Below are positions 580 through 47,735 of a stretch of 50,810 nt of DNA, piece by piece; positions within the stretch are counted from its first letter, which is position 1, and every line of letters starts with the position of its first letter. The notes below the pieces were generated by a model that worked only from the letters and a program-made list of their open reading frames with translations, searched no databases and was not told the DNA's origin. Source of the stretch: Nanobdellota archaeon (lineage in GTDB: Archaea; Nanobdellota; Nanobdellia; Woesearchaeales; GW2011-AR4); assembly GCA_038046685.1 (NCBI GenBank), contig JBBSVT010000103.1, positions 1-50,810 on the forward strand, given 5' to 3'. The position numbers and the translations under genes were made by a program.

Positions 580-612
580 CAACCTTTTTAAACATACTCA
601 TTATTCCATTTT

Positions 613-704
613 TATTGCCTACGGAGCACAAGTTGCTCCAATAACTGCGAGGCTATAAAATGCAGTTCAGCATTCTGGACTGTTTTTCAGACAAAATAGG
701 AATA
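613..704 (+). promoter_or_regulatory. Putative structured 5' leader of rps2 (four-way junction)
   Basis: Stems: 623-628/634-639, 643-648/662-667, 674-678/687-691, closed by 613-621/697-704. A TATA-like TTTTTAAA lies at about 585-592. Confidence 0.5.
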
Positions 705-738
705 CGTAATAAACCATAACATATTAATAAATTTGAAA

Positions 739-1338
739 ATGGCTGAGGAAAAATTTTTGGTTCCAAGGGATGTTTATCTAAAGTCAGGGATACACATAGG
801 CACAAAATTCAGGACAAAATACATGGATCAGTTTATCTATAAAACGAGGCCCGATGGGTTGTCTGTTTTAAACCTGCAAAAAATTGATGAAAGAATAAAG
901 ATTGCTGCCTCCTTTCTAACTCAATACGGCTCAGAGGATGTCTTAGTCATATGCCGAAGAGAGAACGGATGGAAGGCAGTAGAATTATTTGGAAAATTGA
1001 CAGGAATTAGAGTTTTTGCCGGCAGATATCCGCCAGGAATATTAACAAATCCAAATCTCGAGATATACACAGAAGCAAAGATAGTGCTTGTTGTGGATGC
1101 CTGGCCTGACAAAAACGCCGTTCTTGACGCCGTTAGGATAGGAATCCCCGTAGTTGCATTGTGTGACACCAATAACCAGTCAAATTTCCTGGATTTGGTT
1201 GTTCCATGCAATAATAAAGGTAAGAAAAGTCTTGGATTATTATTTTACATTTTAACAAAGGAATTCCTAAGGTTAAAAGGAAAATTAAAAGACGGTGAAG
1301 AATTAAAGGAAAAACTGGAGGATTTTACAGAAGAGTAA
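739..1338 (+). CDS. rps2: 30S ribosomal protein uS2 (archaeal)
   Basis: YLKSGIHIGTK, GRYPPGILTNP and VPCNNKGKKS motifs of archaeal S2. ATG at 739 preferred over TTG at 733. Confidence 0.97.
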   Translation: MAEEKFLVPRDVYLKSGIHIGTKFRTKYMDQFIYKTRPDGLSVLNLQKIDERIKIAASFLTQYGSEDVLVICRRENGWKAVELFGKLTGIRVFAGRYPPGILTNPNLEIYTEAKIVLVVDAWPDKNAVLDAVRIGIPVVALCDTNNQSNFLDLVVPCNNKGKKSLGLLFYILTKEFLRLKGKLKDGEELKEKLEDFTEE

Positions 1339-2313
1339 TCAAACAGAACTTAACAAATCTTCTATTGCTTGCTTTACATTCTTACCCTTAAAAAGAACTT
1401 CGTACGTTTGTTGAGTTAAAGGCATCTTTATCTTATGTCTGCCGCTATACCCATATACAGCCATTGTTGTTGGGATGCCTTCTGCTATCATTCCATGCAT
1501 TTCTTTTTTTATTTCATCTAGTTTTTTGCCAACTGCAAGCTGCTCGCCGACAAAGTGATTTCTGCTGTGTCTGCTTGTGCACGTGGCTATTAAATCACCA
1601 ACTCCGGCCAAACCGTAGACTGTGCCTCTTTTAGCACCAAAATGCCTTCCAAAGTTATTCATTTCCATTAATCCAAGCGTGATTATAGATGCTTTTGCAT
1701 TATCACCAAATCCAAGGTTATCACAAACTCCAGTTGCCACTGCTGAAATATTTTTTAAAGCGCCGCAGATTTCTACTCCATCAACATCATTTAACTGATA
1801 TAATTTGAAATATGGCGTTGCCAGGCATTCGGCAATTATTTTGCATGTCTTTTTGTCGCTGCTTGCAACAACACTTGCTGTGGGCATTTTTCTGCTTACT
1901 TCCTCTGCATGATTTGGGCCTGACAAAACTGCTATTTTTGCTTTTCCTATTTCCTCTTGTATAACTTGGGACATTCTTTTGCATGTGGAGCTCTCAAGTC
2001 CTTTTGTCGCGCTAATGATTATCTGGTTTTTAAAATAGGGCCGGATTTTTTTCAGTGTATCCCTCAAAAATTCGCTTGGAATAGATACTATTATTATTTC
2101 AGAACCTTCAAGCATATTTTTCAAAGAATGGTCTACTATCACATTTGTCGGAATTTTTATTCCTGGCAAATACTGTAAATTCTCTCTTTTAGCTTCAATT
2201 TCATTTGAAAGCTCTTCTCTTCTAGCCCAAAGCTTTACGTCTAAACCTTTTTCACCTAATAAAACCGCTAAGGTTGTACCCCATGAACCTGCCCCCATTA
2301 TTGAAATTTTCAT
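1339..2313 (-). CDS. gpsA: NAD(P)H-dependent glycerol-3-phosphate dehydrogenase (bacterial type)
   Basis: GAGSWGT Rossmann motif, TKG, LSGPNHAEE, GALKN, GLAGVGDLIATC..SRN. Confidence 0.95.
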   Translation of the reverse strand: MKISIMGAGSWGTTLAVLLGEKGLDVKLWARREELSNEIEAKRENLQYLPGIKIPTNVIVDHSLKNMLEGSEIIIVSIPSEFLRDTLKKIRPYFKNQIIISATKGLESSTCKRMSQVIQEEIGKAKIAVLSGPNHAEEVSRKMPTASVVASSDKKTCKIIAECLATPYFKLYQLNDVDGVEICGALKNISAVATGVCDNLGFGDNAKASIITLGLMEMNNFGRHFGAKRGTVYGLAGVGDLIATCTSRHSRNHFVGEQLAVGKKLDEIKKEMHGMIAEGIPTTMAVYGYSGRHKIKMPLTQQTYEVLFKGKNVKQAIEDLLSSV

Positions 2314-2948
2314 TTTTGATTAAAATTATATTTTTGTTTTGACAACCTTGCTATCTCTTTCATTATCTTGTTTGTTACTTCCCTTAACATCTTTTTATTA
2401 ATCTTTTTATTGTAATATTCCGGAAAATATATTGGCTTTCCAATGTTCATAATGGCTCTTTTAAATTTTGGAATATAATCTCCTTTTGGCAGAATTTCAA
2501 AAGTGCCTATCAACCCGATTGGCAAAACAGGGGCTTTTGAAAAAAGAGTAAGCCTTGCAACTCCAGTTTTTGCTTTTTGCAATTTTCCTGTCAAGCTTCT
2601 TGTTCCTTCTGGATGAATTGCTATTATCTTGCCAGCCTTTAATGCCTGAATAGCCCATATCAATGCTTCTTTGCCTCCTTCTTCCCTGTCAAGAGGTACT
2701 GCACCTACATAAGTGTGCCAAACCTTTTTAAGAATGTTGTTAAAGTGCTCTTTCTTTGCAAGATGATGTATTTTCTTGTTGAGATAAGGAATCAAAGTAC
2801 ACATTATCACAAAATGGTCCATGTAGCTGGCATGATTTGCAGCTATGATAAAATGCCCATGTTTAGGGACATTTTCCAATCCATTAACTTTCTTAATCCA
2901 AAATCTGAATATTGTGGGGATTATTCTTTTTCCGATTGGATATACCAT
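2310..2948 (-). CDS. plsC: PlsC-family lysophospholipid acyltransferase (paralog 2)
   Basis: NHASYMD (HX4D) and HPEGTRS motifs; ATGA overlap with gpsA. Confidence 0.9.
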   Translation of the reverse strand: MVYPIGKRIIPTIFRFWIKKVNGLENVPKHGHFIIAANHASYMDHFVIMCTLIPYLNKKIHHLAKKEHFNNILKKVWHTYVGAVPLDREEGGKEALIWAIQALKAGKIIAIHPEGTRSLTGKLQKAKTGVARLTLFSKAPVLPIGLIGTFEILPKGDYIPKFKRAIMNIGKPIYFPEYYNKKINKKMLREVTNKIMKEIARLSKQKYNFNQK

Positions 2949-2949
2949 T

Positions 2950-3597
2950 TTAGTAATTATATTTTTGTCCTATTAGTTTTGCTATTTCTTTCATTATGCT
3001 CCGTGTGATTTTTACAAATATTTTTTCACTTGATTTTATGTTATAATATTTATTAAAATATATTGGCTTGCCGAATTTGACTTCGCATCTTTTGAAGCGA
3101 GGCAACACTTTTCCGACCGGAAGCACTTTATTTGCGTCTATGATCGCTACTGGCAGTACAGGAACTTTTGCTTTCAACGCAATTTTCGCAACGCCTGTGT
3201 AAGCCTTTTGCAGCTTTCCGTCTTTGCTTCTTCTCCCTTCAGGGAAGATAATAACTATTTCGCCTTTGTCCAGAGATTGCAGCACTTTTTTCATGTATTC
3301 TTGATTATTTTTCTTTGCATTAACTTCTTTATCCACATACACTGGAATGCCCCCCCACAGGTTAAGAAAGAATTTGGTGATAATATTTTTCCAGTAAAAG
3401 CTGTTGACCAACGCCCTAAATTGCCTATTCTGCCTTGAAATTATTATGCATGGTATAAGCAATGCATCATAATAGCTTGTATGGTTAACTGCTATAATAA
3501 ATGACTTATCTTTTGGCACATTTTCCCATCCTTCAATTTTCCTCAGCCAAAGTTTGTAAATGGGTGGAACTATCCATTTTGATATCGGGTAAGCCAT
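2950..3597 (-). CDS. plsC: PlsC-family lysophospholipid acyltransferase (paralog 1)
   Basis: NHTSYYD (HX4D) and FPEGRRS motifs; alignable over its full length with the neighbouring paralog. Confidence 0.9.
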   Translation of the reverse strand: MAYPISKWIVPPIYKLWLRKIEGWENVPKDKSFIIAVNHTSYYDALLIPCIIISRQNRQFRALVNSFYWKNIITKFFLNLWGGIPVYVDKEVNAKKNNQEYMKKVLQSLDKGEIVIIFPEGRRSKDGKLQKAYTGVAKIALKAKVPVLPVAIIDANKVLPVGKVLPRFKRCEVKFGKPIYFNKYYNIKSSEKIFVKITRSIMKEIAKLIGQKYNY

Positions 3598-3683
3598 ACT
3601 TTAGAAAAATAGAATAAGATATTAAAAAGTTTTTGCTTCTATACCTATAGAAATCCAACAAAATAGAAAAAATAATAAAAAAA

Positions 3684-4700
3684 TTATTCTATATCTTTGA
3701 TTCCGGTTTCGTCTATGTAAAACGAAGATTCACCTTCTGGCATACTAGGCGAGTCAATCAATTTAGCTACTCTTGTTCCTTTCTTGCCTTTCCTCAAGTA
3801 AACCCTGAAAGTTGAGGCATGCGCCACAATATGGCCCCCTATTGGTTGAGTAGGATCACCAAAGAACATATCTGGCTTTGCCATAACCTGATTTGTCACA
3901 TAAACACACAAATTATGCATATCTGCCAATTTCAGCAATATGTGCATATGCTTGTTTAGCTTTTGCTGCCTATTTGCCAAGGTGCCTCTGCCTATAAATT
4001 CTGCCCTAAAGTGGGCTGTCAATGAATCAATGACAACGAGTTTTACGTTTAAGCCTTGTTTTTTTATTAAGTCTTCTATCTTTTCTGCCAACAGCATTTG
4101 ATGATCAGAGTTGTAAGCCCTTGCCACTTTAATGTTCTTTAAAACCTGCTCTTCGTCCAAGCCAGCCCCCTTGGATAATTGTATAATTCTTTCTGGCCTG
4201 AAAGTGTTCTCTGTATCGATGTAGACTGCAACTGCATCTTTATCAACAGATTGGCAGCTGACAGCCAATGCATGGCCAAGCTGCGTTTTTCCAGAGCCGA
4301 ATTCACCAAAACATTCTACAATTGCGCCTGTTTCCAAGCCGCCTCCAATCAATGAATCAAATGATTTGCTTCCTGTTTTTATTCTGATTACTTTTTCTCT
4401 TCTTCTCAGCAATTCTTCTCCTGACTCAAAGCCCATCTCAAGAGATTCCCTTGCAACTGCAATCATTTTCTTTGCAACTGCATCATTCATTCCAGTTGCT
4501 TCCACAAGTTCAGCTGGCGATGCTACAGCAACGCTCATTAAATCCGTATAGCCAACTGCAATAAGCTTTTCAGCAGTTGCTGCCCCTACTCCGGGTAAAT
4601 CATAGATTGTTTTCTCTTCTTTTTCCATCTTTATTTCGCGTCTTTTTCTTCTTGAATCTTTTGATTCAGAATTTTGTATTTCTATAGCTTCTTGTTCCAT
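3684..4700 (-). CDS. radA: DNA repair and recombination protein RadA
   Basis: N-terminal HhH (DLPGVG), Walker [35 protein letters not shown]. Start uncertain (4700 or 4628). Confidence 0.97.
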
Positions 4701-4744
4701 TATAATCACTTCCTTTTATATTTTTATTCATTTTAGAAAGAGGT

Positions 4745-5041
4745 TTAAATAACCTCTTCTATAACATCTTCATCAATTTCGGAGTAGCTAGCAGTTTCCA
4801 TTTCCCTAAGAACTAAGTACTCATATGCTTTTTCAAGCACTAAAGCTGCTTTTGGCAAATCATTGACTCTGAAAGAACTTGCGCTTTGCCAAACTCCATT
4901 TTTGTCTTTATATCTCCTCTGCAGAGAAACAGTTCTGTAAGCGACCATTTCTCCGTTTCTGCCTTTTCCCTGGTTTTGCCAGACTGTGGCAGTTATAACT
5001 CCCGTGCTGAATTTCTTTTCAGGCACATTTCTACTTTCCAT
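4745..5041 (-). CDS. Small hypothetical protein, possibly a PC4-like ssDNA-binding protein
   Basis: Beta-rich aromatic/basic pattern (ATVWQN, RRYKDKNGVWQ), acidic C-terminal tail, GGGTGA SD motif, directly upstream of radA. Confidence 0.65.
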   Translation of the reverse strand: MESRNVPEKKFSTGVITATVWQNQGKGRNGEMVAYRTVSLQRRYKDKNGVWQSASSFRVNDLPKAALVLEKAYEYLVLREMETASYSEIDEDVIEEVI

Positions 5042-6344: not shown

Positions 6345-6599
6345 TTATCTGTCATATATGCTGCCTCTGTGGCCTGCAACCCTAACAAATAGAACCTTAT
6401 TTTTGAAATCGATATCAATAAGCAACCTATAATCTCCAACCCTAAGCTTATAGAAATCCCTACCTTCATAATGCTCAAGATAATGGAAAGGATTTTCTTT
6501 TATCTCCTTGACTTTCAGAACAATTCTTGCCGATATATCATTCGGCAACTTGCGTAAATATTTCTTTAATTTAGGATCCCACTCAACAGAGTAACTCAT
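6345..6599 (-). CDS. relE: RelE/ParE-family type II toxin
   Basis: YSVEW...YKLRVGDYRLLIDID...GHR signature; ATGA overlap with the antitoxin. Confidence 0.9.
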   Translation of the reverse strand: MSYSVEWDPKLKKYLRKLPNDISARIVLKVKEIKENPFHYLEHYEGRDFYKLRVGDYRLLIDIDFKNKVLFVRVAGHRGSIYDR

Positions 6600-6799
6600 T
6601 GTAAGAATTCTTTTTCCATATCTTCTTGGCTGATGTACTCGGATCGAGGAGTTTTTCTAGCTTCTTCAAGTTGCCTTTTAGCTTCATTGCTAAGCTCAAA
6701 GTCCTCTGCCAGAGCGTGTTTTATAAACTTCATGTCCTTTTGAAGATCTTTCAACTCCTCGTGTATGGTCTTAAGTGATACAGATGTCATTTCATTCAC
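6596..6799 (-). CDS. Cognate antitoxin (archaeal RelB-like)
   Basis: Small acidic helical protein directly upstream of, and overlapping, relE; C-terminal EYISQEDMEKEF. Confidence 0.75.
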   Translation of the reverse strand: MNEMTSVSLKTIHEELKDLQKDMKFIKHALAEDFELSNEAKRQLEEARKTPRSEYISQEDMEKEFLQ

Positions 6800-23129: not shown

Positions 23130-24875
23130 TTACCTGCATCTTAACGGATAATTAGCTTCAGTTGGTTGAGAACAAATATTTCCGCCGCCATCAACAATCA
23201 TGCTTTCTGGTTTTAAGTATGGTGCTGGAAGGGTTATGCCGAAATCATTGTTTGTGAATATGTTGTTGCCGAGAATAAGCTCATTTTGAGTAAGAACTCG
23301 TTCGCCTGATAATTGACTTAAACCTCCAAAATATTGCAGATTAAAAAAAGATGAGGTAGGGTCTGTATTACTAACTCGCTTAGGATTTATAAATTTATTA
23401 TTGCTAAAAATATTGTCTTTAAAGAATCTGTATTCATCTTGAGGCATTACTCTTTCTGTGTCCCAGCCTCTGGGACGCAGGCCGTAGGTTAAAGCAAAAT
23501 TAAACAAATGAGGAGAATCTTCAATAATATTTTGGGATACTAAATTGTCTTTCCAACTGTTCCAATACCATCCTCCTATACCGCAAAGGCCATTGTTCTT
23601 TATGTTATTATTTGATATTTGAGTTTTAGAAATAAAACCAAGTGTTTCTATACCACAATCATAATGGTTTTTAATCAAGTTATTCTGAATAATATCTTCA
23701 GTTTCGTCACCTAAAACAATCCCATCATCTGCACCAATTTGCTTTAATAGGTCACCGTCCGATCTTCCATCAATTCTATTGTTAATTATTTTATTGTTTG
23801 ATCCAAAAATAGAGATTATAAGACCGCCTGGATCAAATGATTGAGCATATGAAACGTCATTATTTTCAATGATATTTCCAGATGAGTACTCCTGCTGGTA
23901 ATAAGTTTCGATATAATTATCTTTAATCTGAATATTTGAACTCTTAAATACCTTAGTAGCATGGAGACGATTTCTACTGATAACACCTTTATCGCTGTAT
24001 GATACAAGTAATGCAGTAACTCGTCCTCCGGTTGTTTTTAATGTACATTCATTCAGTTTAAAATTCCTTATATTATTTATAGTAACATCGGTGTTAATTG
24101 CAACATCGGAAATACCGCTTGTAATAGAATGTCCATTACAATTTATATATACATCATTCGTATCATGAACATTCAAACAAGTACCAGTTGTCGAACTTAA
24201 ATCCCTATCCAAAACATAATTCCCGCTTTGTGTTATTTCTTGACAAGAAGTTAACGTTATAGTTGGTAATGTAATTTTCCCAAACCTCACCACACTCGGA
24301 GTTACAATATCCTGACCATTCTGATTTTTTAATCGTGTAGTTATTGAATATTCTCCATCTTGTAAATTATCATCATTTCGAAATTTATACGTAAACAATG
24401 TACCTCTCCAACCATCAGCATTTGGAGGAATTGTTACATCATCAGTATAAGGGCAATTTGGCAAAGGTGCTGGAACTTTTGCGGGCTTTTTGCAGCAATA
24501 ATAATCAGTTTTATATCTCATCACATACCTTCCTTGTTCGCAAGTATTACCTATTCTAATTTGTGGTTCTCCGCAGCAAAAATCATTATTCCAAGACCAT
24601 ACAATTGAAGGCATCAAATCATGTTCATCATTATTTGGAAATCTAACCTTGACTTCCAGTCTTGCATTAATATTATCTGCTCCTGTATTTATGACTTGAT
24701 AATCTAAATTTAAAATATTCCCTACTCTATAAGTCTCAGAAATAGTACTCATTTTTAATTGAAGATTTGTATTAATTTGTGCATTAATTGGAGTGATGTT
24801 GAGGACAAATAAAATTAAAATGATTAATAAAATCATGCTTTTAAATAAAAAACTGCGAAAGTCTAGTGAAAACAT
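23130..24875 (-). CDS. Secreted protein with a right-handed beta-helix (NosD/pectin-lyase-like) domain
   Basis: N-terminal signal peptide; CQEITQSGNYVL.RDL...CL.V.....INCNGHSI; Asn/Ile ladders. Confidence 0.78.
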   Translation of the reverse strand: MFSLDFRSFLFKSMILLIILILFVLNITPINAQINTNLQLKMSTISETYRVGNILNLDYQVINTGADNINARLEVKVRFPNNDEHDLMPSIVWSWNNDFCCGEPQIRIGNTCEQGRYVMRYKTDYYCCKKPAKVPAPLPNCPYTDDVTIPPNADGWRGTLFTYKFRNDDNLQDGEYSITTRLKNQNGQDIVTPSVVRFGKITLPTITLTSCQEITQSGNYVLDRDLSSTTGTCLNVHDTNDVYINCNGHSITSGISDVAINTDVTINNIRNFKLNECTLKTTGGRVTALLVSYSDKGVISRNRLHATKVFKSSNIQIKDNYIETYYQQEYSSGNIIENNDVSYAQSFDPGGLIISIFGSNNKIINNRIDGRSDGDLLKQIGADDGIVLGDETEDIIQNNLIKNHYDCGIETLGFISKTQISNNNIKNNGLCGIGGWYWNSWKDNLVSQNIIEDSPHLFNFALTYGLRPRGWDTERVMPQDEYRFFKDNIFSNNKFINPKRVSNTDPTSSFFNLQYFGGLSQLSGERVLTQNELILGNNIFTNNDFGITLPAPYLKPESMIVDGGGNICSQPTEANYPLRCR

Positions 24876-24882
24876 TTTTTCA

Positions 24883-25530
24883 TTAACCCCTTAAGCTGGC
24901 TAAGTTAGCAGTTGGTAATGCAGTTATACTCAAAGCTTCGGCAGCGCTTGACGAGCTTAGGCCAGTTAAACTTGCAGGTTCATTGCCCCATTCACTTATC
25001 AAAACATGATTTCCCATTCCTTCCAGCCTTAAGCTTATTTGATTGTTCTTGGCATTAATGCACAACACATCTCCTTCTACTGATATTTTGCCAATTGAGT
25101 ATGAATCACCTCCAACCAAAAAAACATTTTTTTCAGCTTCGGATTTGATGCTGTCTTTGATGATAGGGTCATTGGTCCCTTGCGGATTATCCTTATTGAT
25201 TATTTGCTCAAAACTTTCAACAAAACATACCTTATTATGCCCAGAGCACAACTGCAAATCCTTTCTTTTCACGCTTCCAAAATCGCTTGTTATGCTTTCA
25301 ATTGAATTGCTCAAATCATTCTTAAACTTAAGGCAGGCAACTTGCTCGCCCCTTGTTGTAAAAATCTGTATTGTGCTATAGCCAAAAATCAAAATGCCTG
25401 AGATTAAAACTAAAGCCAGGATATAGATGAATATTTGGCTGTACAGTTGGGATTTTTTTAGGAATTTTGAAGATATTTCGCATCGAAAGTGATTGGTTTC
25501 CGTTGTCTCGCTGTTTTCATTTTGGGGCAT
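24883..25530 (-). CDS. Class III signal peptide (pilin-like) protein
   Basis: LKKS|QLYSQIFIYILALVL; start position uncertain. Confidence 0.75.
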   Translation of the reverse strand: MPQNENSETTETNHFRCEISSKFLKKSQLYSQIFIYILALVLISGILIFGYSTIQIFTTRGEQVACLKFKNDLSNSIESITSDFGSVKRKDLQLCSGHNKVCFVESFEQIINKDNPQGTNDPIIKDSIKSEAEKNVFLVGGDSYSIGKISVEGDVLCINAKNNQISLRLEGMGNHVLISEWGNEPASLTGLSSSSAAEALSITALPTANLASLRG

Positions 25531-28500
25531 TTTTGTGTTTTACGGCCTTTTTCTGTTTTGATTCCTTAGCTATCTGCTTTAATCTTATAAAAACGTCTTC
25601 TCTTGGTTTTTTATGTTTGGTTTGTTTATTTTTGTGTATTCCCATTTCACCTAATTTTGTTTCTCTTGATTCTGGTTTTTCTACTTTTGGTGGGTTTACT
25701 TCATCATGCGATTTTTCAATTTCAAACGTTTTGAATAATTTTGCTATTTCTGCTTTTTTTTGCTCACTTTTCTTCCTAAGCCGCTCTCTTATATTGATTG
25801 CATCTTCTCTTGCCCTTGAAAATTGTTTAGGTGGTTGTTGGGTTATTGTCTTCGATAGTGATTTTTGCTTAGGCAATCCAAATTTTTCCTTTTTTGTAGT
25901 TTTTGCTTTGTATGCTAAGTATCCAAAACCAATGAGCAATATTACTATGCCAAAAGCAAATAATAATATTTTGAGGAAACTGGATTTTGGGTGGTCTTCA
26001 GGATCAGTTGGGTTTGTGTTCTTATCAACTTCGTCTTTATCGGTAAAGCCGTCGTTGTCTGTATCTGGGTTATTAGGATCTGTGCTATTGCCATATATTT
26101 TCATTAAGTTGAATTCTTCGATGTTCGTCAAGCCATCATTGTCTGAGTCAAGCTGGGCATCGTTAGGCTCATTTGGATTCAATCCATTTTGCACTTCCCA
26201 TTGGTCTGGCAAACCATCCTTGTCAGTATCTTTGCCTTGTTGCGGCTCGTCTATGTCTGGTATGCCGTTGCAATTCTCGTCATTTTCTTCGCATCTCTTG
26301 CATTGATACGAGAAACACTTTAAGCTGTTTTCACAATCTTCATTTACGCCGCAGGTATTACCCTCAGAACATTTCGTTGGGCACGGCCCTCCGCAGTCAA
26401 TATCTGACTCTCCTGAGGTAAGAATGCCGTCCAGGCAACTCTCCTGCGGCCTGCATGTTCCATAGCTGCAAAATTCGCTTTTGCAGTCATTATGATTGTT
26501 GCAATTTTGATTGTTTTGGCATTTTTTGCAAACTCCGCCGCAGTCTGCATCACTTTCTTCCTGATTTTTTACATTATCGTCGCATTTGGGAATTGTGCAT
26601 AATTCATTGTTGCAAAAATTAGTCTTGCAATCACTATCTGCTCCGCATTTTTTCCCAACTCCGCACAATTTGCATCCGCCGCCGCAGTCTGTGTCAATTT
26701 CTCCATTGTCTGTTATTTCGTTTGAGCAGCTTGCAGGCTCCAGACTTGTGTCTACAGTAATCCCGTCACTTTCTTTGACATCGCTAAAAAGACCAACTAC
26801 ATTTTTTGCTTGGACTCTAAAGAAATATCGGCTGCCATTAGTCAGACCTAGACTATTTCCGTTTGATTTGGTTACCACTACCCACTTTTTATTAGCATAA
26901 CTTGTGGTCCAGTTAACAATCTCATTTGGATTTCCTGATTCTACAAGTGAATACAAGTGGGAACTCAATTTAGATTCTTCTTCTAAAGATTCCCATTTAA
27001 CCCTTAAGCTGTCTGCACTCGATGTATAATCTGGATTGTTTGAAAGTGTGCTGTTGTCATCGACAGACAAAAGGCGCGGTGGAGTAATATCAATCGTAAA
27101 AGACACAGGCATTACGTCTGAAAATTTCTCCAAATACTGGTCTTTGCATTTAACAAAAAATGTATGCTTTCCTGGAATCAGAACCAACTTTTTTGTGTGG
27201 CTGTATCCTGAAACGCCGAATATGGTCCCATCCTCAATCAATGCATCATTTTCTGAATATTTGCATTGGGATTTTTTGTTTGTTTCTACGGCCAATGTGA
27301 CATCTGTTGAATTAAAAAATTCCGGAGTATGTGATATAATTGATATCGGAGCTTTTAAGTCCACTTTGAAAGGTATTTCTTTCGTGCCTGATTTTAATTC
27401 TGCCTTGTTCTTGCACGATACAAAATACAAATAATTACCTTCATTTTTTACAGTAATTTCCTGCTTATTTATAACCCTAAAGGTTTCATTGTCAAAGCCA
27501 GAAAATTTTCCATCCATTGTATCAAAATCGTTGGAGGTGTTGCTAAACTTGCAAACTACAGGTTCATCAACCTCTATAGTTAACGCAGTAGTTGATGGCT
27601 TTTCGACAACTGGATTTGGATAAGCAAATGCGCTCTTTAAATTAGGGGGGCTTGTATCAACATTTATATCAAAACTTCTGAACGAACTTTGCTGATTTTG
27701 GCATCTCACATTCAGTTTATGGGTTTTGGTGTCACCATCAGGTATTTTGTTAAAATTTGGAATAGTATGCGAAACTCCCCCAGTGTTTGTAAACTTCTCC
27801 ATAAATTCAAATTCAAAATCATCGTCTAGGCTGTGCCTGCATTCAGCATTATTATCAGTCTCTATTATAATATTAAAAGTGTACTTTGACGCTGTACCGA
27901 ATCTTGGGCTTGCTAGACTTATTGTGGTTGGGTTTGCATCAACAATAAACAAAACAAACCCAGTTATTTCATTTTTTGCAAAGTCTTTTGCAGAGATTTC
28001 AAGCTTTTTATTTCCATCGGTTAGATTAACTACTGCAGTGAATAATTTGTTGTTGTTTGTAGAAAATAAGTATTTAATATCTTTTGAATTTATTGTTGCC
28101 GTAGCTAAGCCAACTTCCTTGTCAAATTCAAGTTTAATCATTATCTCAGAGTCATTTAACACAGAGCCATTAGAAGGGGCAATTGTTAATTCAGGCTTAA
28201 TATTATCGATAACAATGGTTGCTGAAAACGATTGATCCATAAAAATGCCATCTTGGTTCTTTGCGTTTAACTCAAACGTATATTCACCATTTGGTAACAT
28301 CCGTTCTACTGTTAAGCTGACATTTTTATTTGACATATCATTGCCCTGCAAAGTCTCTATATATCCTGTCTCTTTGTTAACAAGGCGCGCAAATGTGATG
28401 ATGGCCGGCTCAACAAATCGCACATTTATATTTGGTTTTTGATTGCTTGTGAAATATTTTTCAAGGACCTTTGTGCCGTCAGTTATCTCAATATTTAGCA

Positions 28501-30580
28501 CTCGCGGCCCATCTGTTTTGCTGTAGGCCTGCACTATGATTTTTTTGACTTCACCAAGATTTTTGGCTGGGTCCTGGGAATAGTATCTTATAACATTAGT
28601 TCCATCATTTAAAGTCAATAGCTTATTGCCATTATCTCCATCAAATGCGTTGAGATTGCTTATTATTATTGTTTTGCTCGATGTTGATTTTTCGTAAGGG
28701 TGACCTTGGGAATTGCATGGTTCTAAGCACAAAAAGGTAACATAATCCTGAGAAGTCTTTAAGCCGTTTAATCCATTGATGCTGGTTTTGTCATGGATTT
28801 GGATAACTAGGCTATGAAGCACTCCTTTATTGATTATGGGCAATAGTGTTGTGTTTGGTCCAAAATAATCTATTTCACATTCTCGGCTTTCACAATCAAC
28901 ATTATCATCCCCGTCTGCATTCTTGACGCATACGCCACCAATATTTTGGCATGCCATTATTCCGCATTCATCTCCTGAAGGGTTAGTAATCTTATTGTTC
29001 TCGTCGTGATTGATTTTTGCATTAGAGCATTGGTCAGTAGAATAGTCCCTGCAAACTACATCTTCGCAATTCTTAGATTGACCATTGCGGAAATAGCATT
29101 TAAATGTGTCCCATGACAATAAATTTGATTTTTCTCTCGTACACAGGTCAAAAACTTCATTAAACGACTTAATGTTTTCCAGGGATTCTGTTCCCTTCTT
29201 GTCGCACCACTTACAGTTATATTCAGCAGTGCTTACACAAACTCCGATTCCAATCTGCCCTGCCAAATTCTTCCATCTGCAATTTGTGACTTTGCAGTTA
29301 TCTCTTGTGCAGGCCTCTTCAGTCTTGTAATCATAACAAGACATTGATGGCTCACAGCTAAAGCAGGAATTTATGGTTGAATGCGACCTGTCATAAAAGC
29401 AGTACTTGTTTGTTTCGCAGTCTTGTAAGGTATAGTAGAGTCCAAACGGGTTTGCACTTCTATAATTGCAGCTAATTTTGTTTATGCATGCAGGCCGATT
29501 ATTTGTTATTATGCAAAGCGTATCTGATGGGCAGGAAGCTCCAACCGGTGCAAGCCTGTTGAAATTGTTACACGAGAATGCTTTGTTAAAATTGTTGCCA
29601 AACTCTCTTCTCACTACATCAGGGAAGCTTTCTGAATATTTATCTGGAAAGTTTGTCAGCAAATAATTTTTATATTTATTATAATAGAAGTCGTTAATGC
29701 AGAAGTTATTTGCAGTAGGCTGATCCAAGCACTCTAGATTCCCTAGGCTCGCTGTTTTTGTTATTGTTGGTGTAGCGGTTTGCGGGCTATATCTTGCTTT
29801 AATCTGGTAAGTATACGTTGTATCAAAAAGCAAATCCTCTGACGCGTCTTCAAATGATTTTGTGTTTGTTGTTCCAACAAGTGCAAAGTTTGTGCATCCT
29901 CCATCTTTGCACCGGAGAATTTCATAAGATAAAGCATTTTCACTGCATTCGTCCTTCCATATTAATAAGAATTTTCTTTGGCCTTTTGCTGCTGTTATTT
30001 CAAAATCTTTTAATTCTGGAGTGTAGTTAGGATTGATGCAGCCGGCTCCTTGGCTGGTGCAACTTCCATCTAATTCAGTTCTATCAGCTGGGCTTGAGCA
30101 ACCTAGGTCTCCTCCCTCAAAGTCTGCGCATCCATTGTTGTCGTTGTCTATATTATCATCGCATTGGGGGATTGGGCATATTTGGTTGCAGTCAGCTTCG
30201 TCTTTATGAAATATTAATCCAGTTCCTTTGCATTGCGCCTCTGGCTTGATTGCTCCGCCTAATTCAGAGCAGCAGCATCCAATAGCACAGGCATTTATGC
30301 CAGAGCACGCCCTATTTACAAAAAAGAAATTGTTTGCACAATTACCGCTGTTGGATGGATTTTCTGGATTTTGGTCTGACACATAATATTCTGAAAAGTC
30401 CGTTTCTGGTGTTGGGCAACATTCCTTATCTTTTAATACCAATCTGTCTGCTGAGCAAGTTAGGAGGCCTGCTCCTGGATTACTGCAGCATCCAAGTTCG
30501 TCTGCTATGGTGATTGCAGCTATAACTAATCCAAATATAAATAATAAGATTACTATTACCCCTTTTTTTATTGTACTCAT
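25517..30580 (-). CDS. Giant (1687 aa) Cys-rich cell-surface protein
   Basis: Signal peptide; Cys-rich N-terminus; FN3/Ig-like centre; three E.D.DCGG repeats; three DxDxDG TSP3-like repeats; C-terminal TM and Lys-rich cytoplasmic tail. Confidence 0.85.
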   Translation of the reverse strand: MSTIKKGVIVILLFIFGLVIAAITIADELGCCSNPGAGLLTCSADRLVLKDKECCPTPETDFSEYYVSDQNPENPSNSGNCANNFFFVNRACSGINACAIGCCCSELGGAIKPEAQCKGTGLIFHKDEADCNQICPIPQCDDNIDNDNNGCADFEGGDLGCSSPADRTELDGSCTSQGAGCINPNYTPELKDFEITAAKGQRKFLLIWKDECSENALSYEILRCKDGGCTNFALVGTTNTKSFEDASEDLLFDTTYTYQIKARYSPQTATPTITKTASLGNLECLDQPTANNFCINDFYYNKYKNYLLTNFPDKYSESFPDVVRREFGNNFNKAFSCNNFNRLAPVGASCPSDTLCIITNNRPACINKISCNYRSANPFGLYYTLQDCETNKYCFYDRSHSTINSCFSCEPSMSCYDYKTEEACTRDNCKVTNCRWKNLAGQIGIGVCVSTAEYNCKWCDKKGTESLENIKSFNEVFDLCTREKSNLLSWDTFKCYFRNGQSKNCEDVVCRDYSTDQCSNAKINHDENNKITNPSGDECGIMACQNIGGVCVKNADGDDNVDCESRECEIDYFGPNTTLLPIINKGVLHSLVIQIHDKTSINGLNGLKTSQDYVTFLCLEPCNSQGHPYEKSTSSKTIIISNLNAFDGDNGNKLLTLNDGTNVIRYYSQDPAKNLGEVKKIIVQAYSKTDGPRVLNIEITDGTKVLEKYFTSNQKPNINVRFVEPAIITFARLVNKETGYIETLQGNDMSNKNVSLTVERMLPNGEYTFELNAKNQDGIFMDQSFSATIVIDNIKPELTIAPSNGSVLNDSEIMIKLEFDKEVGLATATINSKDIKYLFSTNNNKLFTAVVNLTDGNKKLEISAKDFAKNEITGFVLFIVDANPTTISLASPRFGTASKYTFNIIIETDNNAECRHSLDDDFEFEFMEKFTNTGGVSHTIPNFNKIPDGDTKTHKLNVRCQNQQSSFRSFDINVDTSPPNLKSAFAYPNPVVEKPSTTALTIEVDEPVVCKFSNTSNDFDTMDGKFSGFDNETFRVINKQEITVKNEGNYLYFVSCKNKAELKSGTKEIPFKVDLKAPISIISHTPEFFNSTDVTLAVETNKKSQCKYSENDALIEDGTIFGVSGYSHTKKLVLIPGKHTFFVKCKDQYLEKFSDVMPVSFTIDITPPRLLSVDDNSTLSNNPDYTSSADSLRVKWESLEEESKLSSHLYSLVESGNPNEIVNWTTSYANKKWVVVTKSNGNSLGLTNGSRYFFRVQAKNVVGLFSDVKESDGITVDTSLEPASCSNEITDNGEIDTDCGGGCKLCGVGKKCGADSDCKTNFCNNELCTIPKCDDNVKNQEESDADCGGVCKKCQNNQNCNNHNDCKSEFCSYGTCRPQESCLDGILTSGESDIDCGGPCPTKCSEGNTCGVNEDCENSLKCFSYQCKRCEENDENCNGIPDIDEPQQGKDTDKDGLPDQWEVQNGLNPNEPNDAQLDSDNDGLTNIEEFNLMKIYGNSTDPNNPDTDNDGFTDKDEVDKNTNPTDPEDHPKSSFLKILLFAFGIVILLIGFGYLAYKAKTTKKEKFGLPKQKSLSKTITQQPPKQFSRAREDAINIRERLRKKSEQKKAEIAKLFKTFEIEKSHDEVNPPKVEKPESRETKLGEMGIHKNKQTKHKKPREDVFIRLKQIAKESKQKKAVKHKNAPK

Positions 30581-44224: not shown

Positions 44225-47200
44225 TTATCCAAACCATCTGTTCAATCCTTCCTGCTTGTCTTTCTCTCTTCCAAAAACCCCTTCAACCCTATTTTTTGTT
44301 AACTCCAAAGTTTGTCTAAGATAGGCAGGAAGCCCATATTTCTCTGATAAGGAGATCGCCGGCTCTAAATATTTGATGATTGTGCCCTCTGAAACAGTGA
44401 ATATTAATCTGCTGTCGCATGCCAAACATCTTCCTGTTAAAGGTGGCCTGCGGTACTTTTCGGTGCATTTGCTGCACCTAAATTGCTGCATGGAAAATTT
44501 TCTTAAATTCCCCTTTATATCTCTTAATAAGTGTTTTTCTATAACCAATCTGGCAACATCCGCTGCATCTACAGCTCTTATTTTATCTGCTAGCTCCATT
44601 TGTCCTTTTAATTTGTCTTCCATTGAAGGTAGTGTCTTGTACGAAGAGCACTTAATACCCATGTTGATATTGGTCAGTGGATGTGTATAATGTATTGCCG
44701 AGTAGTCATTTTCAGAATTTAGTATATTTGCAAATCTTTGTATATTCACGTTCCACGGAAGCTCGTATTTTTGTGTTGATTCATAAAATTCTATTGGATA
44801 GTTTTTGACTACATCCAAATCAAACACCATATCATCAACTTCTGTTGGAACCAGTATTGAAGTTATAACTAAAGGTGCGTCTTGTGTTGCTCCTCGCGAA
44901 TTTGGAAGGAATTGTCTTGAGAAATTTAGAAGCGCGTCCATCAGTAAAGTAACCGATGCTTCATCTCCATCACAATCCCTTCTTGTTGCTGCATGAAATA
45001 AAGGATGGGCATACAATACCTGTGTTTTAGAAAATCCAATTATCCTGCCTACAATGCCGGCTGACGTATGCGGTGCCAATGCAACAACAAGGTGCCCCAC
45101 TAGGTCTTGTCCGGATTGCAAATTATAAAATTCTTTCAGGCCGTATAATGAAACTAGCAGCTCATCAATAAACCTGCTTAGATTATAAAGAATCTTGTCA
45201 GCGCCAGATTCAGGCGCATCTTCACATTTTGGTAAGATAATGTCTTGCGGATTCAATTCTAAGATTTGCTCCTCACCTGCCAATTCTGATCCGTGAATAT
45301 CTTTGGTATAGCCCAGTCTCCTCAATTCTTCCACTGAAGTTCCAATCTCTTTCGGATTGAAATGCGTGATTGGCAGCTGCGTCATATCATATCTAGTAGT
45401 GCCATCTCTGTTGACTGGCAGCTCATGTTTTGCCCTTAAGATTCCTTTTGCAGGGTGCTCCGGAACATGATTTTTGTTTGAGGTACCTCTAACACCTTTT
45501 ATCAGATCTGGGTATTGTTGCATGCCTAGTTTTTTTAATATTCTCTTAAAGTAATGGTTGATATCGATGTTCTGCAATTTATAGCTGTTTGTGTTTCCAT
45601 GTTTGCATTTTGTGTCTTCAGTTAGTCCGCATGAGCTGCAATGCCTCATTTTTTTTGTTTTATTGTCGCATTGTTCACATACACTTAGTATTGTCTCTTT
45701 TTTACAATGCTCACAAAAATATATCGGGAATTCTGCTGCTATATGCCCTGATTCCATTGCGTTTTGAAATGACCTTAATTTACCTCCCTGTTTCCCTATA
45801 GGAAATAGTGTATGTGGCTCGCCATCGAGCTTCCGCACTTTTGCCTTCTCCGGTCTACCCATTCTTGCACCGACAAAAATCCCTGATTTGTCCCTGATTT
45901 TTATCACTGAAAATAGATTTAATATGTCTAGAACATCCTCCGTCTGAGAATTTTTATATTGCTCGCAAAAATTCTTTTCGTCAAGTTTTAATAGAGAATT
46001 TAATATTTCTGCATCATCCCGTCCTATTATCACTGACTCATTATTAACATAAATATGCGGCACCCCAAGAAGCTCCAGGACTCTTTTACCCACTTCATCT
46101 TTTGGAAGAATAATCTTACTGATGTCACTTCCATTAAATTCTATTTTTGCCTTAAGGAACCAATCAACTAACACAAGAAATTCCTCCCTTGAAATAGTTT
46201 TCCAATGGTAAGTGAAATAAGGATGTAAGGGGACAGAAAGGGCTTTGCTTAATGTTATTGCTATTTTTGCTGTCGGTTTCTCAAAAAAAAAATTTTTGAC
46301 TGAGTTCTCTAGATTGACTTCCTCGAGGCCAGTTATTTCTGAGAGTTTGTGGAAGTCTAAAAAACCAAATCTGGCTACCATTTCTTTTTCAACTTCAAGC
46401 GACCACCATTCTTCACAATACCCAGCAGGTGGCAAAGTGTGTGCCCTGTTAAAGAAATCCCCATAACTGATTAGTATATCACCCAAAAATAAAATTTCCT
46501 TGGTAGATCCAACTACCTGTTTTGCTGTATATTCAGTATCCACTTTAATAACACTTCCATTATCCAATTTTACTATAGGTCCATCTATGGAGTCACATAC
46601 ACTCACAGCTGTTGCCTTCCCGGGCCTTTCTATCTTCAGTTGGGTGCCTATTGCAATGTATTTGTTAAGAATTATCATAGTAGCCGGATGTATTGCTGAT
46701 GCCGAATATCCTGACGTCCTACATCTTCCGTAACGCAAACGAAATCCTCCAACAGCAAGCGGGTGCGTCAGAACTGGTCTGCCGGCTACGAGGTCCTGAA
46801 TATATGTGTAAATTGGGGCTATTCCTTTTCTTACAATTTTTTCTTTTGCCTTCGTTTCCTTTTGCAATTGCGTGAACTCTTGCAAAAATAACCAATTCTC
46901 AAGACCAAACTCTTTGGCCCATTTTTTAAGTTGTGGCCATATTTTGGCAGCTTTTTGCGCCACACATTCCCCAAGAACTAAACACGGTCCGCTCCTTATC
47001 CCATTGGTTTCTATTCTTTCCAGGTCTTTATAATTAGAAACTTCTATATCTTCAGATGCATCACCATCAATCTGAACCGGTAAGTTGCTAACCAGAAACC
47101 TTATTTCTCTTTCTGTTGGCAAGTATTGAAGATTGGTGATTCTTTCATGATAATCATAAAGCTCTGTGACCATCCTCCTTATTTCCTTCTCTGAAGGATC

Positions 47201-47734
47201 ATAAGCGTCATATCCTAAATTTTTCCTTATGTAATCTGCGATAATAACGCTTAGGGCGCCTGCAGTTCCTCCAGCGCTTCTTATAGGCCCAGAATACATT
47301 AGAGAGAAATATTCTTTACCATCCAGCCTTTTTCCCAGTTTTAAGCCGACAAAACCTTCTAATGGTGATGACACAACACCAAGGGTTAAATAAGCCAAAC
47401 CCACCCTTATTCCTGTTTCAATCGCGTCTTTTTGTGTTTCGAAACTACAAAATTTTTGCTGGGTAGTTTCTATGGATATTTTAAGTGCAACTCTCCAATC
47501 CAGTTTTCCATAAATGCTTTCAAGTTCCTTTATTCTTTTCGGGATTCCTTTATGTAGTATTTGTGGGACTGCCACACTTATCAAGCCTTCTACTCGCTCT
47601 GTCATATTTTTGGCTAGAGGTATATTCACTTTTTCCTCAGGGTCATAACCTTTTGACCTTGCCAAATTTGCGACTTGATAAGAGGCGTCTGTCTTTGCAA
47701 GAATATCGTTCATGTAATTACCTTCATTTCTCAT
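44225..47734 (-). CDS. polC: DNA polymerase D large subunit (DP2)
   Basis: GPIRSAGGT, GGFRLRYGR, RMGRPEKA, CDGDE catalytic motif, C-terminal Zn finger; no intein. Confidence 0.97.
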   Translation of the reverse strand: MRNEGNYMNDILAKTDASYQVANLARSKGYDPEEKVNIPLAKNMTERVEGLISVAVPQILHKGIPKRIKELESIYGKLDWRVALKISIETTQQKFCSFETQKDAIETGIRVGLAYLTLGVVSSPLEGFVGLKLGKRLDGKEYFSLMYSGPIRSAGGTAGALSVIIADYIRKNLGYDAYDPSEKEIRRMVTELYDYHERITNLQYLPTEREIRFLVSNLPVQIDGDASEDIEVSNYKDLERIETNGIRSGPCLVLGECVAQKAAKIWPQLKKWAKEFGLENWLFLQEFTQLQKETKAKEKIVRKGIAPIYTYIQDLVAGRPVLTHPLAVGGFRLRYGRCRTSGYSASAIHPATMIILNKYIAIGTQLKIERPGKATAVSVCDSIDGPIVKLDNGSVIKVDTEYTAKQVVGSTKEILFLGDILISYGDFFNRAHTLPPAGYCEEWWSLEVEKEMVARFGFLDFHKLSEITGLEEVNLENSVKNFFFEKPTAKIAITLSKALSVPLHPYFTYHWKTISREEFLVLVDWFLKAKIEFNGSDISKIILPKDEVGKRVLELLGVPHIYVNNESVIIGRDDAEILNSLLKLDEKNFCEQYKNSQTEDVLDILNLFSVIKIRDKSGIFVGARMGRPEKAKVRKLDGEPHTLFPIGKQGGKLRSFQNAMESGHIAAEFPIYFCEHCKKETILSVCEQCDNKTKKMRHCSSCGLTEDTKCKHGNTNSYKLQNIDINHYFKRILKKLGMQQYPDLIKGVRGTSNKNHVPEHPAKGILRAKHELPVNRDGTTRYDMTQLPITHFNPKEIGTSVEELRRLGYTKDIHGSELAGEEQILELNPQDIILPKCEDAPESGADKILYNLSRFIDELLVSLYGLKEFYNLQSGQDLVGHLVVALAPHTSAGIVGRIIGFSKTQVLYAHPLFHAATRRDCDGDEASVTLLMDALLNFSRQFLPNSRGATQDAPLVITSILVPTEVDDMVFDLDVVKNYPIEFYESTQKYELPWNVNIQRFANILNSENDYSAIHYTHPLTNINMGIKCSSYKTLPSMEDKLKGQMELADKIRAVDAADVARLVIEKHLLRDIKGNLRKFSMQQFRCSKCTEKYRRPPLTGRCLACDSRLIFTVSEGTIIKYLEPAISLSEKYGLPAYLRQTLELTKNRVEGVFGREKDKQEGLNRWFG

Positions 47735-47735
47735 T

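Follow-up and report, generated by a model that had tools for sequence, protein, structure and literature searches.

A three-gene operon lying between the archaeal genes for ribosomal protein uS2 and the recombinase RadA encodes two paralogous acyltransferases of the PlsC family (plsC_B and plsC_A) and an sn-glycerol-3-phosphate (G3P) dehydrogenase of predicted bacterial type (gpsA). It was found on contig JBBSVT010000103.1 of a Nanobdellota archaeon (order Woesearchaeales, GenBank assembly GCA_038046685.1), which was analyzed over its full length of 50,810 nt and is called the window below. The order and position of the genes are conserved among relatives, both paralogs carry the HX4D and EGxR motifs and model onto a glycerolipid acyltransferase fold, acyl-CoA genes are linked to the operon, and the genome holds head-group genes in an inventory in which the enzymes of the archaeal core route were not found. 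We consider it probable that the operon leads from dihydroxyacetone phosphate (DHAP) through G3P and lyso-phosphatidic acid (lyso-PA) to phosphatidic acid (PA) with acyl-CoA as the donor, followed by CDP activation by a CarS-like enzyme. Such a route would cross the divide between archaeal isoprenoid ether lipids on sn-glycerol-1-phosphate (G1P) and bacterial acyl ester lipids on G3P, which is among the deepest in biology and is central to models of the last universal common ancestor and of eukaryogenesis, where an archaeal host switches membrane type. The initial annotation of this DNA had read the three genes as a bacterial-type G3P ester-lipid operon, an interpretation that is supported here, most of the in silico checks having turned out in its favor.

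An operon conserved among Woesearchaeota-type archaea

The three genes are tightly packed on the minus strand, at the position first given for them (Table 1): one base separates the plsC_B stop from the plsC_A start, the plsC_A stop and the gpsA start overlap by 4 nt (ATGA), and the stop codons of gpsA and of convergent uS2 adjoin. Their placement in an archaeal core region also holds, since the flanking uS2 and RadA proteins score as archaeal types and a gene for PolD DP2 lies on the same contig, whose GC content is even at about 0.35. Logan contigs from four runs of two studies, all of them DNA from groundwater metagenomes, cover positions 600-4800. One record spans this stretch whole, and in a run that is not flagged as a possible source of the assembly, separate records bridge the uS2-gpsA junction, the gpsA/plsC_A/plsC_B genes and the plsC_B-radA junction with 0 differences. 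With both junctions bridged by contigs of two studies, the region is not chimeric, the outcome that the initial annotation had named as one that would refute it.

All seven relatives that were fetched (7/7, from seven other family codes of the order) have the genes in the order plsC_B-plsC_A-gpsA and convergent on uS2, and so do 46 of 49 archaeal loci taken from species-representative genomes, contig ends cutting the remaining three; the two sets share genomes, so that these counts are neither independent nor additive, and the relatives are kin, so that no co-occurrence count given here is a statistical test. The gene immediately upstream of plsC_B encodes RadA in 31 of the 49 loci and EtfA in 11. 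Identity to the window across the loci is 66-91% for uS2, 50-82% for GpsA, 47-83% for the downstream PlsC and 38-67% for the upstream PlsC, a pattern that points to vertical inheritance. An operon that is native to, and vertically inherited within, a clade of Woesearchaeota-type DPANN archaea is the best explanation of these data, and close homologs that bear an organism label are assigned to Candidatus Woesearchaeota or Nanoarchaeota.

Two sets of database labels deserve mention beside these loci. A public contig filed in a Nomurabacteria bin (L065) has plsC_B-plsC_A-gpsA, 60-72% identical to the window, together with an archaeal-type uS2 at 82%; in all likelihood it is of Woesearchaeota type and was mis-binned into a metagenome-assembled genome (MAG) of a bacterium of the candidate phyla radiation. 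Many species-representative MAGs that have the operon, and whose uS2 and RadA resemble those of Woesearchaeota, bear the title 'uncultured Methanosarcinales archaeon' (L057-L062, L069, L076, L079, L087, L089, L092, L095, L097-L099 and L102-L104), which looks wrong for these contigs.

Farther afield, the nearest GpsA relatives outside the window's own 50% cluster (43-48% identity) carry the mixed labels Latescibacterota, KSB1, Anaerotignum, Promethearchaeota and Methanobacteriota, in a look-up of 10 clusters of which five lack an organism label (four nameless, one with a function name only). PlsC relatives outside the clade (25-41% identity) come from Patescibacteria, Clostridia, Margulisbacteria, Planctomycetota and Actinomycetota, their branching being unresolved, and no donor of the bacterial-type genes can be named.

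Upstream of plsC_B, loci in the RadA context share a 13-mer, AAAAC[CA]TTTTTAA, that starts 36-38 nt before the ATG. When the broader pattern [AC]AAA[AC][ACT]TTTTTAA was searched on both strands of 725 kb, it occurred 24 times in total and 22 of these were at the plsC_B position; the element stands at this fixed distance in 20 of the 31 RadA-context loci, in none of the 11 EtfA-context loci and in two of the seven others. It matches what we take to be the archaeal consensus for the transcription factor B recognition element (BRE) and TATA box, and judging from its sequence and spacing it may drive a near-leaderless transcript. In loci with etfA upstream, the operon seems instead to be transcribed together with that gene. 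A scan for sigma-70 promoters and terminators gave background level only.

The dehydrogenase and the two acyltransferases

GpsA matches both of its family models (PF01210, 179.6 bits against a cut-off of 23.1; PF07479, 179.4 bits against 25) and the NCBIfam subfamily model NF000942 (392 bits against 257), and scores below the cut-off in all equivalog models (for example 373.8 bits against 423 for NF000941). Its best relative of solved structure is the Thermotoga maritima GpsA (1Z82, 233 bits); the Archaeoglobus fulgidus protein (1TXG) scores 128 bits. The motifs GAGSWG (residues 7-12) and GALKN (184-188), which we take to be the Rossmann GxGxxG motif and the conserved lysine motif of GpsA, both align with 1Z82. 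We propose from these comparisons that the protein is a GpsA of bacterial type, predicted to produce sn-G3P from DHAP.

Both acyltransferases match PF01553 (82.4 bits for plsC_A and 90.6 bits for plsC_B, cut-off 23) and are 45% identical over their full length. The motifs of plsC_A are NHASYMD (38-44), DR (87-88) and PEGTR (113-117), and those of plsC_B are NHTSYYD (38-44) and PEGRR (119-123); H39 is invariant in both 54-row alignments, as are P, E and G of block III. The statement of the initial annotation that all catalytic motifs are intact therefore stands for HX4D and EGxR in both paralogs and fails for block II of plsC_B, which has VDK where plsC_A has DR. This difference separates the two groups as a whole: block II reads 'P(I/L)DRExGG' in the A type, with P[IL]DR in all eight A-clade copies, and 'V(G/D/S)K/E' followed by a Lys-rich insert of 8-12 residues in all eight B-clade copies. 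The arginine of the block II 'xxDR' motif presumably binds the glycerophosphate.

In a careful IQ-TREE analysis of 23 rows that included eight upstream (B) and eight downstream (A) copies, the B copies came out as one clade, starred (96/97), and the A copies as another (86/89). A 76-row tree with bacterial relatives, for which only a quick search was run, placed 20 of 20 A copies in one clade (SH-aLRT 92) and 18 of 20 B copies in another (97*), the upstream copies of L093 and L100 falling outside the B clade on long branches. The separate A and B clades indicate that the duplication is older than the spread of the operon and that the two copies have since been retained without a change in order, and in both trees the two PlsC copies are thus an old, retained duplication. 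Identity to the window among close homologs is 58-69% for B and 67-83% for A, and by this measure plsC_B evolves faster than plsC_A. We propose from their sequences that the two paralogs have diverged in function.

A sequence search of the PDB returned T. maritima PlsC (TmPlsC, 5KYM) as the sole match for both paralogs (E 3.9e-18 for A and 1.2e-13 for B). HX4D and EGxR are conserved between this enzyme and both archaeal proteins. Unlike TmPlsC, plsC_B lacks the 'LDR' arginine, and most of the N-terminal part, about 50 residues, is missing from both paralogs, whose alignments begin at 5KYM residue 52 (A) and 66 (B). The missing part is, we assume, the two-helix membrane motif. Confident AlphaFold2 models (pLDDT 87.7 for A and 85.6 for B) have a single short N-terminal helix each. 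With Foldseek, 5KYM was the first match of plsC_A (E 3.8e-12, TMq 0.71) and the top match of plsC_B by E-value (E 2.4e-10, TMq 0.62), the TMq of plsC_B to soluble and eukaryotic glycerol-3-phosphate acyltransferases (GPATs) being higher (0.67-0.73); the GPATs 1K30, 1IUQ, 8E4Y and 8IA1 were also matched. As modeled, both proteins adopt the fold shared by GPATs and lysophosphatidic acid acyltransferases (LPAATs), and the comparison gives a weak hint that G3P would be acylated by B and lyso-PA by A.

Lipid genes elsewhere in the genome and in the order

The source genome (G000) comprises 1.68 Mb in 119 contigs and is 88% complete with 0.7% contamination, so that absences in it are provisional. 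It was surveyed together with the other genomes of its order, 101 in all, of which eight carry the operon (G000, G009, G015, G023, G038, G049, G050 and G075). None of the three archaeal core enzymes named by the initial annotation as worth checking, G1P dehydrogenase (G1PDH), the synthase of geranylgeranylglyceryl phosphate (GGGPS) and that of digeranylgeranylglyceryl phosphate (DGGGPS), was found in G000. GGGPS/PcrB gave no match there, and no full-length GGGPS was found in any of the 101 genomes, the best match being partial at 25.1 bits. The sole UbiA of G000 scores 178.9 bits as decaprenyl-phosphate phosphoribosyltransferase against 30.7 bits as DGGGPS, and no UbiA of the DGGGPS type was found. 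As to G1PDH, the three Fe-ADH_2 matches in G000 are read as other enzymes or are weak: the match on contig C33 belongs to a shikimate cluster and is called 3-dehydroquinate synthase from its neighbors only, that on C88 is an iron-containing alcohol dehydrogenase (Fe-ADH) within a phosphoenolpyruvate (PEP) mutase phosphonate cluster, and the third lies below the cut-off. Four of the 101 genomes, all without the operon, have strong Fe-ADH_2 matches. The C88 cluster itself (G000:C88:26422-30706) encodes PEP mutase, a decarboxylase-like protein dependent on thiamine pyrophosphate, the Fe-ADH and a nucleotidyltransferase, and possibly serves phosphonate head groups or glycan decoration.

Several enzymes of the bacterial route were likewise not found in G000. 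There was no match to PlsY (PF02660), no ketoacyl-ACP synthase and no enzyme of the PlsB type among its four PF01553 genes (three small PlsC-like proteins and a 788-aa fusion). The sole match to CdsA (PF01148), in G000 as in each of the seven other operon genomes, is partial and lies inside the CarS gene, and no full-length CdsA was found in the 101 genomes. A FadD-like long-chain acyl-CoA ligase is present (496 bits, cut-off 476), and for cyclopropane-fatty-acid synthase there were weak generic methyltransferase matches only (27-29 bits). The bacterial set that the initial annotation had listed for checking is accordingly there in part: pgsA and the acyl-CoA ligase are present, as are pssA and psd, and in place of cdsA there is only a CarS-like gene.

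This CarS-like protein (PF01864, 110.9 bits, cut-off 22) is the only CTP:lipid cytidylyltransferase found in G000 and is encoded in a head-group locus (Table 1) in which the PssA-like and PgsA-like proteins have two domains each. CarS and PgsA share one locus in all eight of the relative stretches fetched, with the recurring core RpiB-orf-CarS-...-PgsA, which Psd and PssA join only in G015 among the relatives. A third PlsC lies beside CarS/PgsA in G000, G009 and G038, and a few kb away in G050.

An array of seven acyl-CoA genes on contig C24 encodes, in order, a FabZ/FabA-like dehydratase, a thiolase, a Zn-ribbon/DUF362 protein, a short-chain dehydrogenase/reductase (SDR), a second thiolase, a family-III CoA-transferase and a fusion of a methyltransferase with an SDR. 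The array is conserved in all eight operon genomes, and in many relatives ACAD-EtfB-EtfA genes join it without a break to plsC-plsC-gpsA. In G015 these seven genes are found again, their array stopping about 0.9 kb short of uS2. No exact overlap was found between the end of C24 and the start of the window, and the two probably adjoin, as judged from the gene order in G015 and six named loci. FabZ-like genes occur in 10 of the 101 genomes, including all eight operon genomes, and in six of the seven relatives the gene is on the operon contig. In G050, a co-directional array begins with FabZ-like, thiolase, Zn-ribbon/DUF362, subunits of a 2-oxoacid:ferredoxin oxidoreductase (OFOR; with an epimerase and an aminotransferase interleaved), thiolase and SDR genes, and continues with acyl-CoA dehydrogenase (ACAD), EtfB, EtfA, plsC_B, plsC_A and gpsA. 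The sequence SDR-ACAD-EtfB-EtfA-plsC_B-plsC_A-gpsA is directly contiguous in 11 of the 49 loci. The FabG-like SDR and the FabZ-like dehydratase suggest to us a biosynthetic role for the array more than one in fermentation or beta-oxidation. The 'scavenged fatty acids' of the initial annotation may therefore be too narrow: the FadD-like ligase fits such a source, and the thiolase/FabZ-like/SDR array is linked to the operon.

A further module, on contig C112, has a PPTase-like (phosphopantetheinyl transferase) open reading frame (ORF) at 8888-9184 (AASDHPPT_N 27.6 bits, ACPS 24 bits), and frames of about 790-880 aa with PF01553 are present in four other genomes of the order. From its domains the module looks like a lysophospholipid salvage unit of the Aas/LplT type, and we take the re-acylation system of that name in Escherichia coli as its model. 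As in that system, acyl-activating and acyltransferase functions (here with carrier and PF01553 domains) are followed by a transporter of the major facilitator superfamily (MFS). In contrast to E. coli, the domain order in C112 is reversed, the carrier domain is built in and the PPTase-like ORF lies between the genes; the scores of the fusion also fall well short of the NCBIfam cut-offs (168 bits where 1349 are needed), and the locus is separate from the operon.

Elsewhere in the window, a LigT-like gene beyond uS2 is found beside uS2 in relatives as well. A long run of mainly minus-strand ORFs at 7997-36925 is nearly without family matches (17 ORFs scanned), those obtained being to an M15 peptidase/endolysin-like protein (9822-10898), to a beta-helix protein (23130-24875) and, in a protein of 1687 aa (25517-30580), to a single TSP3 repeat. 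A PHROGs search with 10 ORFs of the 8-36 kb block gave the endolysin-like match only, and the block may represent either a surface-protein island or an integrated virus. At 6345-6799, two short minus-strand ORFs (84 and 67 aa) overlap and resemble, by eye, a RelE/ParE-type toxin and a small antitoxin. No tRNA was found, and the only match in an Rfam scan was a marginal one to Histone3 inside a coding sequence.

Table 1. Positions of the operon, its flanks and the linked or related loci (window coordinates unless a contig of G000 is named)
Feature	Position	Strand	Description
gpsA	1339-2313	minus	324 aa; NAD(P)H-dependent sn-glycerol-3-phosphate dehydrogenase (predicted); last gene of the operon
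plsC_A	2310-2948	minus	212 aa; canonical PlsC/LPAAT-like acyltransferase; proposed sn-2 step
plsC_B	2950-3597	minus	215 aa; first gene of the operon; diverged acyltransferase of the PlsC family; sn-1/GPAT-like step proposed
Promoter-like element AAAAACTTTTTAA	3622-3634	minus	starts 37 nt before the plsC_B ATG
radA-plsC_B intergenic spacer	3598-3683	minus	86 nt; T-rich run directly past the radA stop
radA, upstream flank	3684-4709	minus	recombinase; NF003301 458.7 bits (cut-off 259)
uS2	733-1338	plus	archaeal ribosomal protein; TIGR01012 (uS2_euk_arch) 229.7 bits (cut-off 211.5)
LigT-like gene, flank beyond uS2	112-579	plus	2'-5' RNA ligase/phosphoesterase; PF02834 88.9 bits
PolD DP2	44225-47746		archaeal marker on the same contig
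Acyl-CoA array	G000:C24:23113-30981		seven genes; outside the window
Head-group locus	G000:C57:3187-9476		Psd, OlsG/PmtA-like methyltransferase, PssA-like, PgsA-like, third PlsC-like, glycosyltransferase (GT2), CarS-like
Acyl-activating fusion module	G000:C112:6497-10427		788-aa AMP-binding/PP-binding/PF01553 fusion, PPTase-like ORF, MFS transporter

The proposed route to phosphatidic acid and its alternatives

In the route that we propose, GpsA would reduce DHAP to sn-G3P, PlsC_B would acylate G3P with acyl-CoA to give lyso-PA, and PlsC_A would acylate lyso-PA with a second acyl-CoA to give PA. The acyl-CoA would come from imported fatty acids through the FadD-like ligase and probably also from the linked array, in which thiolases, the SDR ketoreductase, the FabZ-like dehydratase and either ACAD with its electron transfer flavoprotein (ETF) or a second SDR would build chains on CoA. 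The CarS-like enzyme would then convert PA and CTP to CDP-diacylglycerol, from which PgsA, PssA, Psd and the methyltransferase would make phosphatidylglycerol, phosphatidylserine, phosphatidylethanolamine (PE) and methylated PE. From the families, motifs and neighbors of these genes we infer all of the substrates, the order of the two acylations, the acceptance of PA by CarS and the role of the products as membrane lipids. PlsC and PlsY are described as not strictly stereospecific in the available part of one source (PMC13400652), so that GpsA and the lack of G1PDH would determine the stereochemistry.

Compared with the bacterial PA pathway (GpsA; PlsB or PlsX/PlsY; PlsC; CdsA), the set shares a bacterial-type GpsA, a PlsC_A with LPAAT motifs and the downstream PgsA, PssA and Psd. 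It differs in that PlsB, PlsY, CdsA and ketoacyl-ACP synthase were not found in G000, and in that the first acylation is proposed to be carried out by a diverged second PlsC and the CDP activation by an archaeal CarS-like enzyme. A partial precedent for two dedicated acyltransferases that make PA from G3P without PlsY, in an sn-1/sn-2 order that is not fixed a priori, is provided by mycobacterial PlsM/PlsB2, as far as the accessible text of that study goes (PMC10593935); organism and donor chemistry differ, and the parallel drawn is one of division of labor only. The array in turn resembles the CoA-dependent fatty-acid synthase of Sulfolobus acidocaldarius, which, as outlined in the part of the preprint at hand (10.1101/2024.07.05.601840), likewise uses thiolases, an SDR ketoreductase and a dehydratase on CoA thioesters. 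Unlike that system, the array has a dehydratase that is FabZ/FabA-like and not MaoC, its enoyl reduction would fall to ACAD/ETF (in some relatives) or to a second SDR, and a search of the Zn-ribbon/DUF362 protein for a DUF35 domain was negative even at E<=1. DPANN and PlsC are not mentioned in that same part of the preprint.

Homologs of GpsA, PlsC and PlsY in archaeal MAGs were reportedly described by Villanueva and coworkers in 2017. At the level of gene presence, the earlier cases from Marine Groups II and III (MG-II/III), Asgard and DPANN archaea are the same phenomenon. There, the genes were treated singly, whereas here they stand in a conserved operon that includes a pair of old paralogs, is linked to acyl-CoA genes and is accompanied by a CarS/PgsA locus, with no G1PDH or GGGPS found; PlsY, a feature of the Asgard and MG-II cases, was not found here. 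As far as the consulted text of Coleman et al. 2019 (PMC6431249) shows, GpsA is listed for Woesearchaeota and PlsC/PlsY for DPANN, and a role in archaeal membranes is judged unlikely; genes for FabG, FabI, FabZ and cyclopropane-fatty-acid synthase have been noted in some Woesearchaeota MAGs (mBio 2024, PMC10936187). A literature search of main texts found no published account of the operon, the paralog pair, the acyl-CoA linkage or the context with CarS only. The presence of such genes in Woesearchaeota and DPANN is thus already known, and, as far as we have searched, the operon, its linkage and a near-complete pathway without the archaeal core route are new.

A more far-reaching possibility is that the whole clade has swapped isoprenoid ether lipids for self-built fatty-acyl sn-G3P ester phospholipids, with chains from the array, the PlsC pair acting as GPAT and LPAAT, and CarS switched to PA and standing in for CdsA. 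We put this forward only tentatively and regard it as doubtful at present.

A number of observations weigh against the proposed route. Both paralogs miss the cut-off of the LPAAT-specific model TIGR00530 (79.1 bits for plsC_A and 70.7 for plsC_B against 102.95), both are shortened at the N terminus relative to TmPlsC, and plsC_B is without the block-II arginine. GpsA occurs without any PF01553 match in seven of the 28 genomes of the order that have it, which fits a role of G3P in head groups. The CarS-like protein falls just under the cut-off of NF003114 (146.1 against 148 bits). CarS is found in 49 and CDP-alcohol transferases in 57 of the 101 genomes, commonly without GpsA or PlsC, and both may serve scavenged archaeal lipids. 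The characterized CarS of A. fulgidus strongly prefers digeranylgeranylglyceryl phosphate over PA and did not complement E. coli cdsA, according to the accessible portion of the source (PMC9385802), and the CDP-activation step therefore requires a changed specificity. The ACAD, EtfAB and OFOR of G050 were not found in G000 by tblastn, and the acyl-CoA array could serve fermentation or beta-oxidation. Finally, no polyprenyl synthase (PF00348) was found in G000 and one is present in each of the seven other operon genomes, so that the clade can likely make isoprenoid chains; the absence in G000 is probably an assembly gap, and it cautions against a strong reading of any absence in a genome of this completeness.

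Several of these points recur in the alternatives. The best placed, which we nevertheless think unlikely, is that the operon serves salvage and remodeling only: the PlsCs would re-acylate lyso- and phospholipids imported from bacterial neighbors or the environment, the G3P made by GpsA would go mainly to the head group of phosphatidylglycerol, and there would be no de novo PA. The Aas/LplT-like module (788-aa fusion, PPTase-like ORF and MFS transporter) bears on this in two ways, as a sign that G000 has salvage functions and as a dedicated device that is already available for re-acylation. Salvage would also agree with the failure to find PlsY or a PlsB-type enzyme in G000 and with the Patescibacteria, from the same type of habitat, among the nearest non-archaeal relatives of the PlsCs, and DPANN archaea are generally thought to scavenge lipids (PMC7242380, in the part of that text available to us). 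It accounts poorly for gpsA, which makes a backbone and not a lyso-lipid and whose coupling to the acyltransferases is kept in 46 of the 49 loci, for the retention of two anciently diverged paralogs in fixed order, and for the contiguity with thiolase/SDR/ACAD/ETF genes seen in 11 of the loci.

It is still less probable that the genes attach head groups to scavenged archaeal cores, GpsA supplying G3P for groups of the archaetidylglycerol type via CarS/PgsA and the PlsCs acylating glycolipids, head groups or storage compounds. The translational coupling of gpsA to two acyltransferases of the G3P/LPA type would then be unexplained, as would the third PlsC by CarS/PgsA and the position of the operon after acyl-CoA genes, and PlsC_A has every canonical LPAAT block and the 5KYM fold. 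What speaks for this alternative is the spread of CarS and CDP-alcohol transferases through the order irrespective of GpsA or PlsC, the TIGR00530 scores of both PlsCs, and, from the sources cited above in their available parts, the preference of known CarS for isoprenoid substrates (PMC9385802) and the judgment that archaeal PlsC/PlsY are unlikely to act in membrane synthesis (PMC6431249). An artefact, in which bacterial-type genes entered through a chimeric assembly or a mis-binned bacterial contig, could appeal to the origin of the genome as a MAG from a metagenome and to the filing of L065 under Nomurabacteria, and its chance is negligible in view of the two studies' contigs that span both junctions with 0 differences, the even GC and the archaeal uS2, RadA and PolD of the contig, the archaeal flanks shared by 46 of 49 loci and the archaeal-type uS2 of L065 itself, 82% identical to that of the window.

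Until now, lipid genes of bacterial type that turned up singly in archaeal MAGs have been set aside as patchy and as unlikely to serve membranes. The operon, read as a route from DHAP to PA, provides a concrete candidate, open to testing, for an archaeal lineage whose lipids are naturally of bacterial type. It is also tractable, consisting of three small, soluble-looking enzymes plus CarS, in an organism abundant enough in the small-cell fractions of groundwater for lipidomics. The proposed route predicts a CarS variant that accepts phosphatidic acid, which would inform what enforces the divide enzymatically. Were the more far-reaching possibility of a clade-wide swap of lipids true, the clade would be the first among archaea whose membrane is essentially of bacterial type, built by a mixed set of archaeal and bacterial enzymes.

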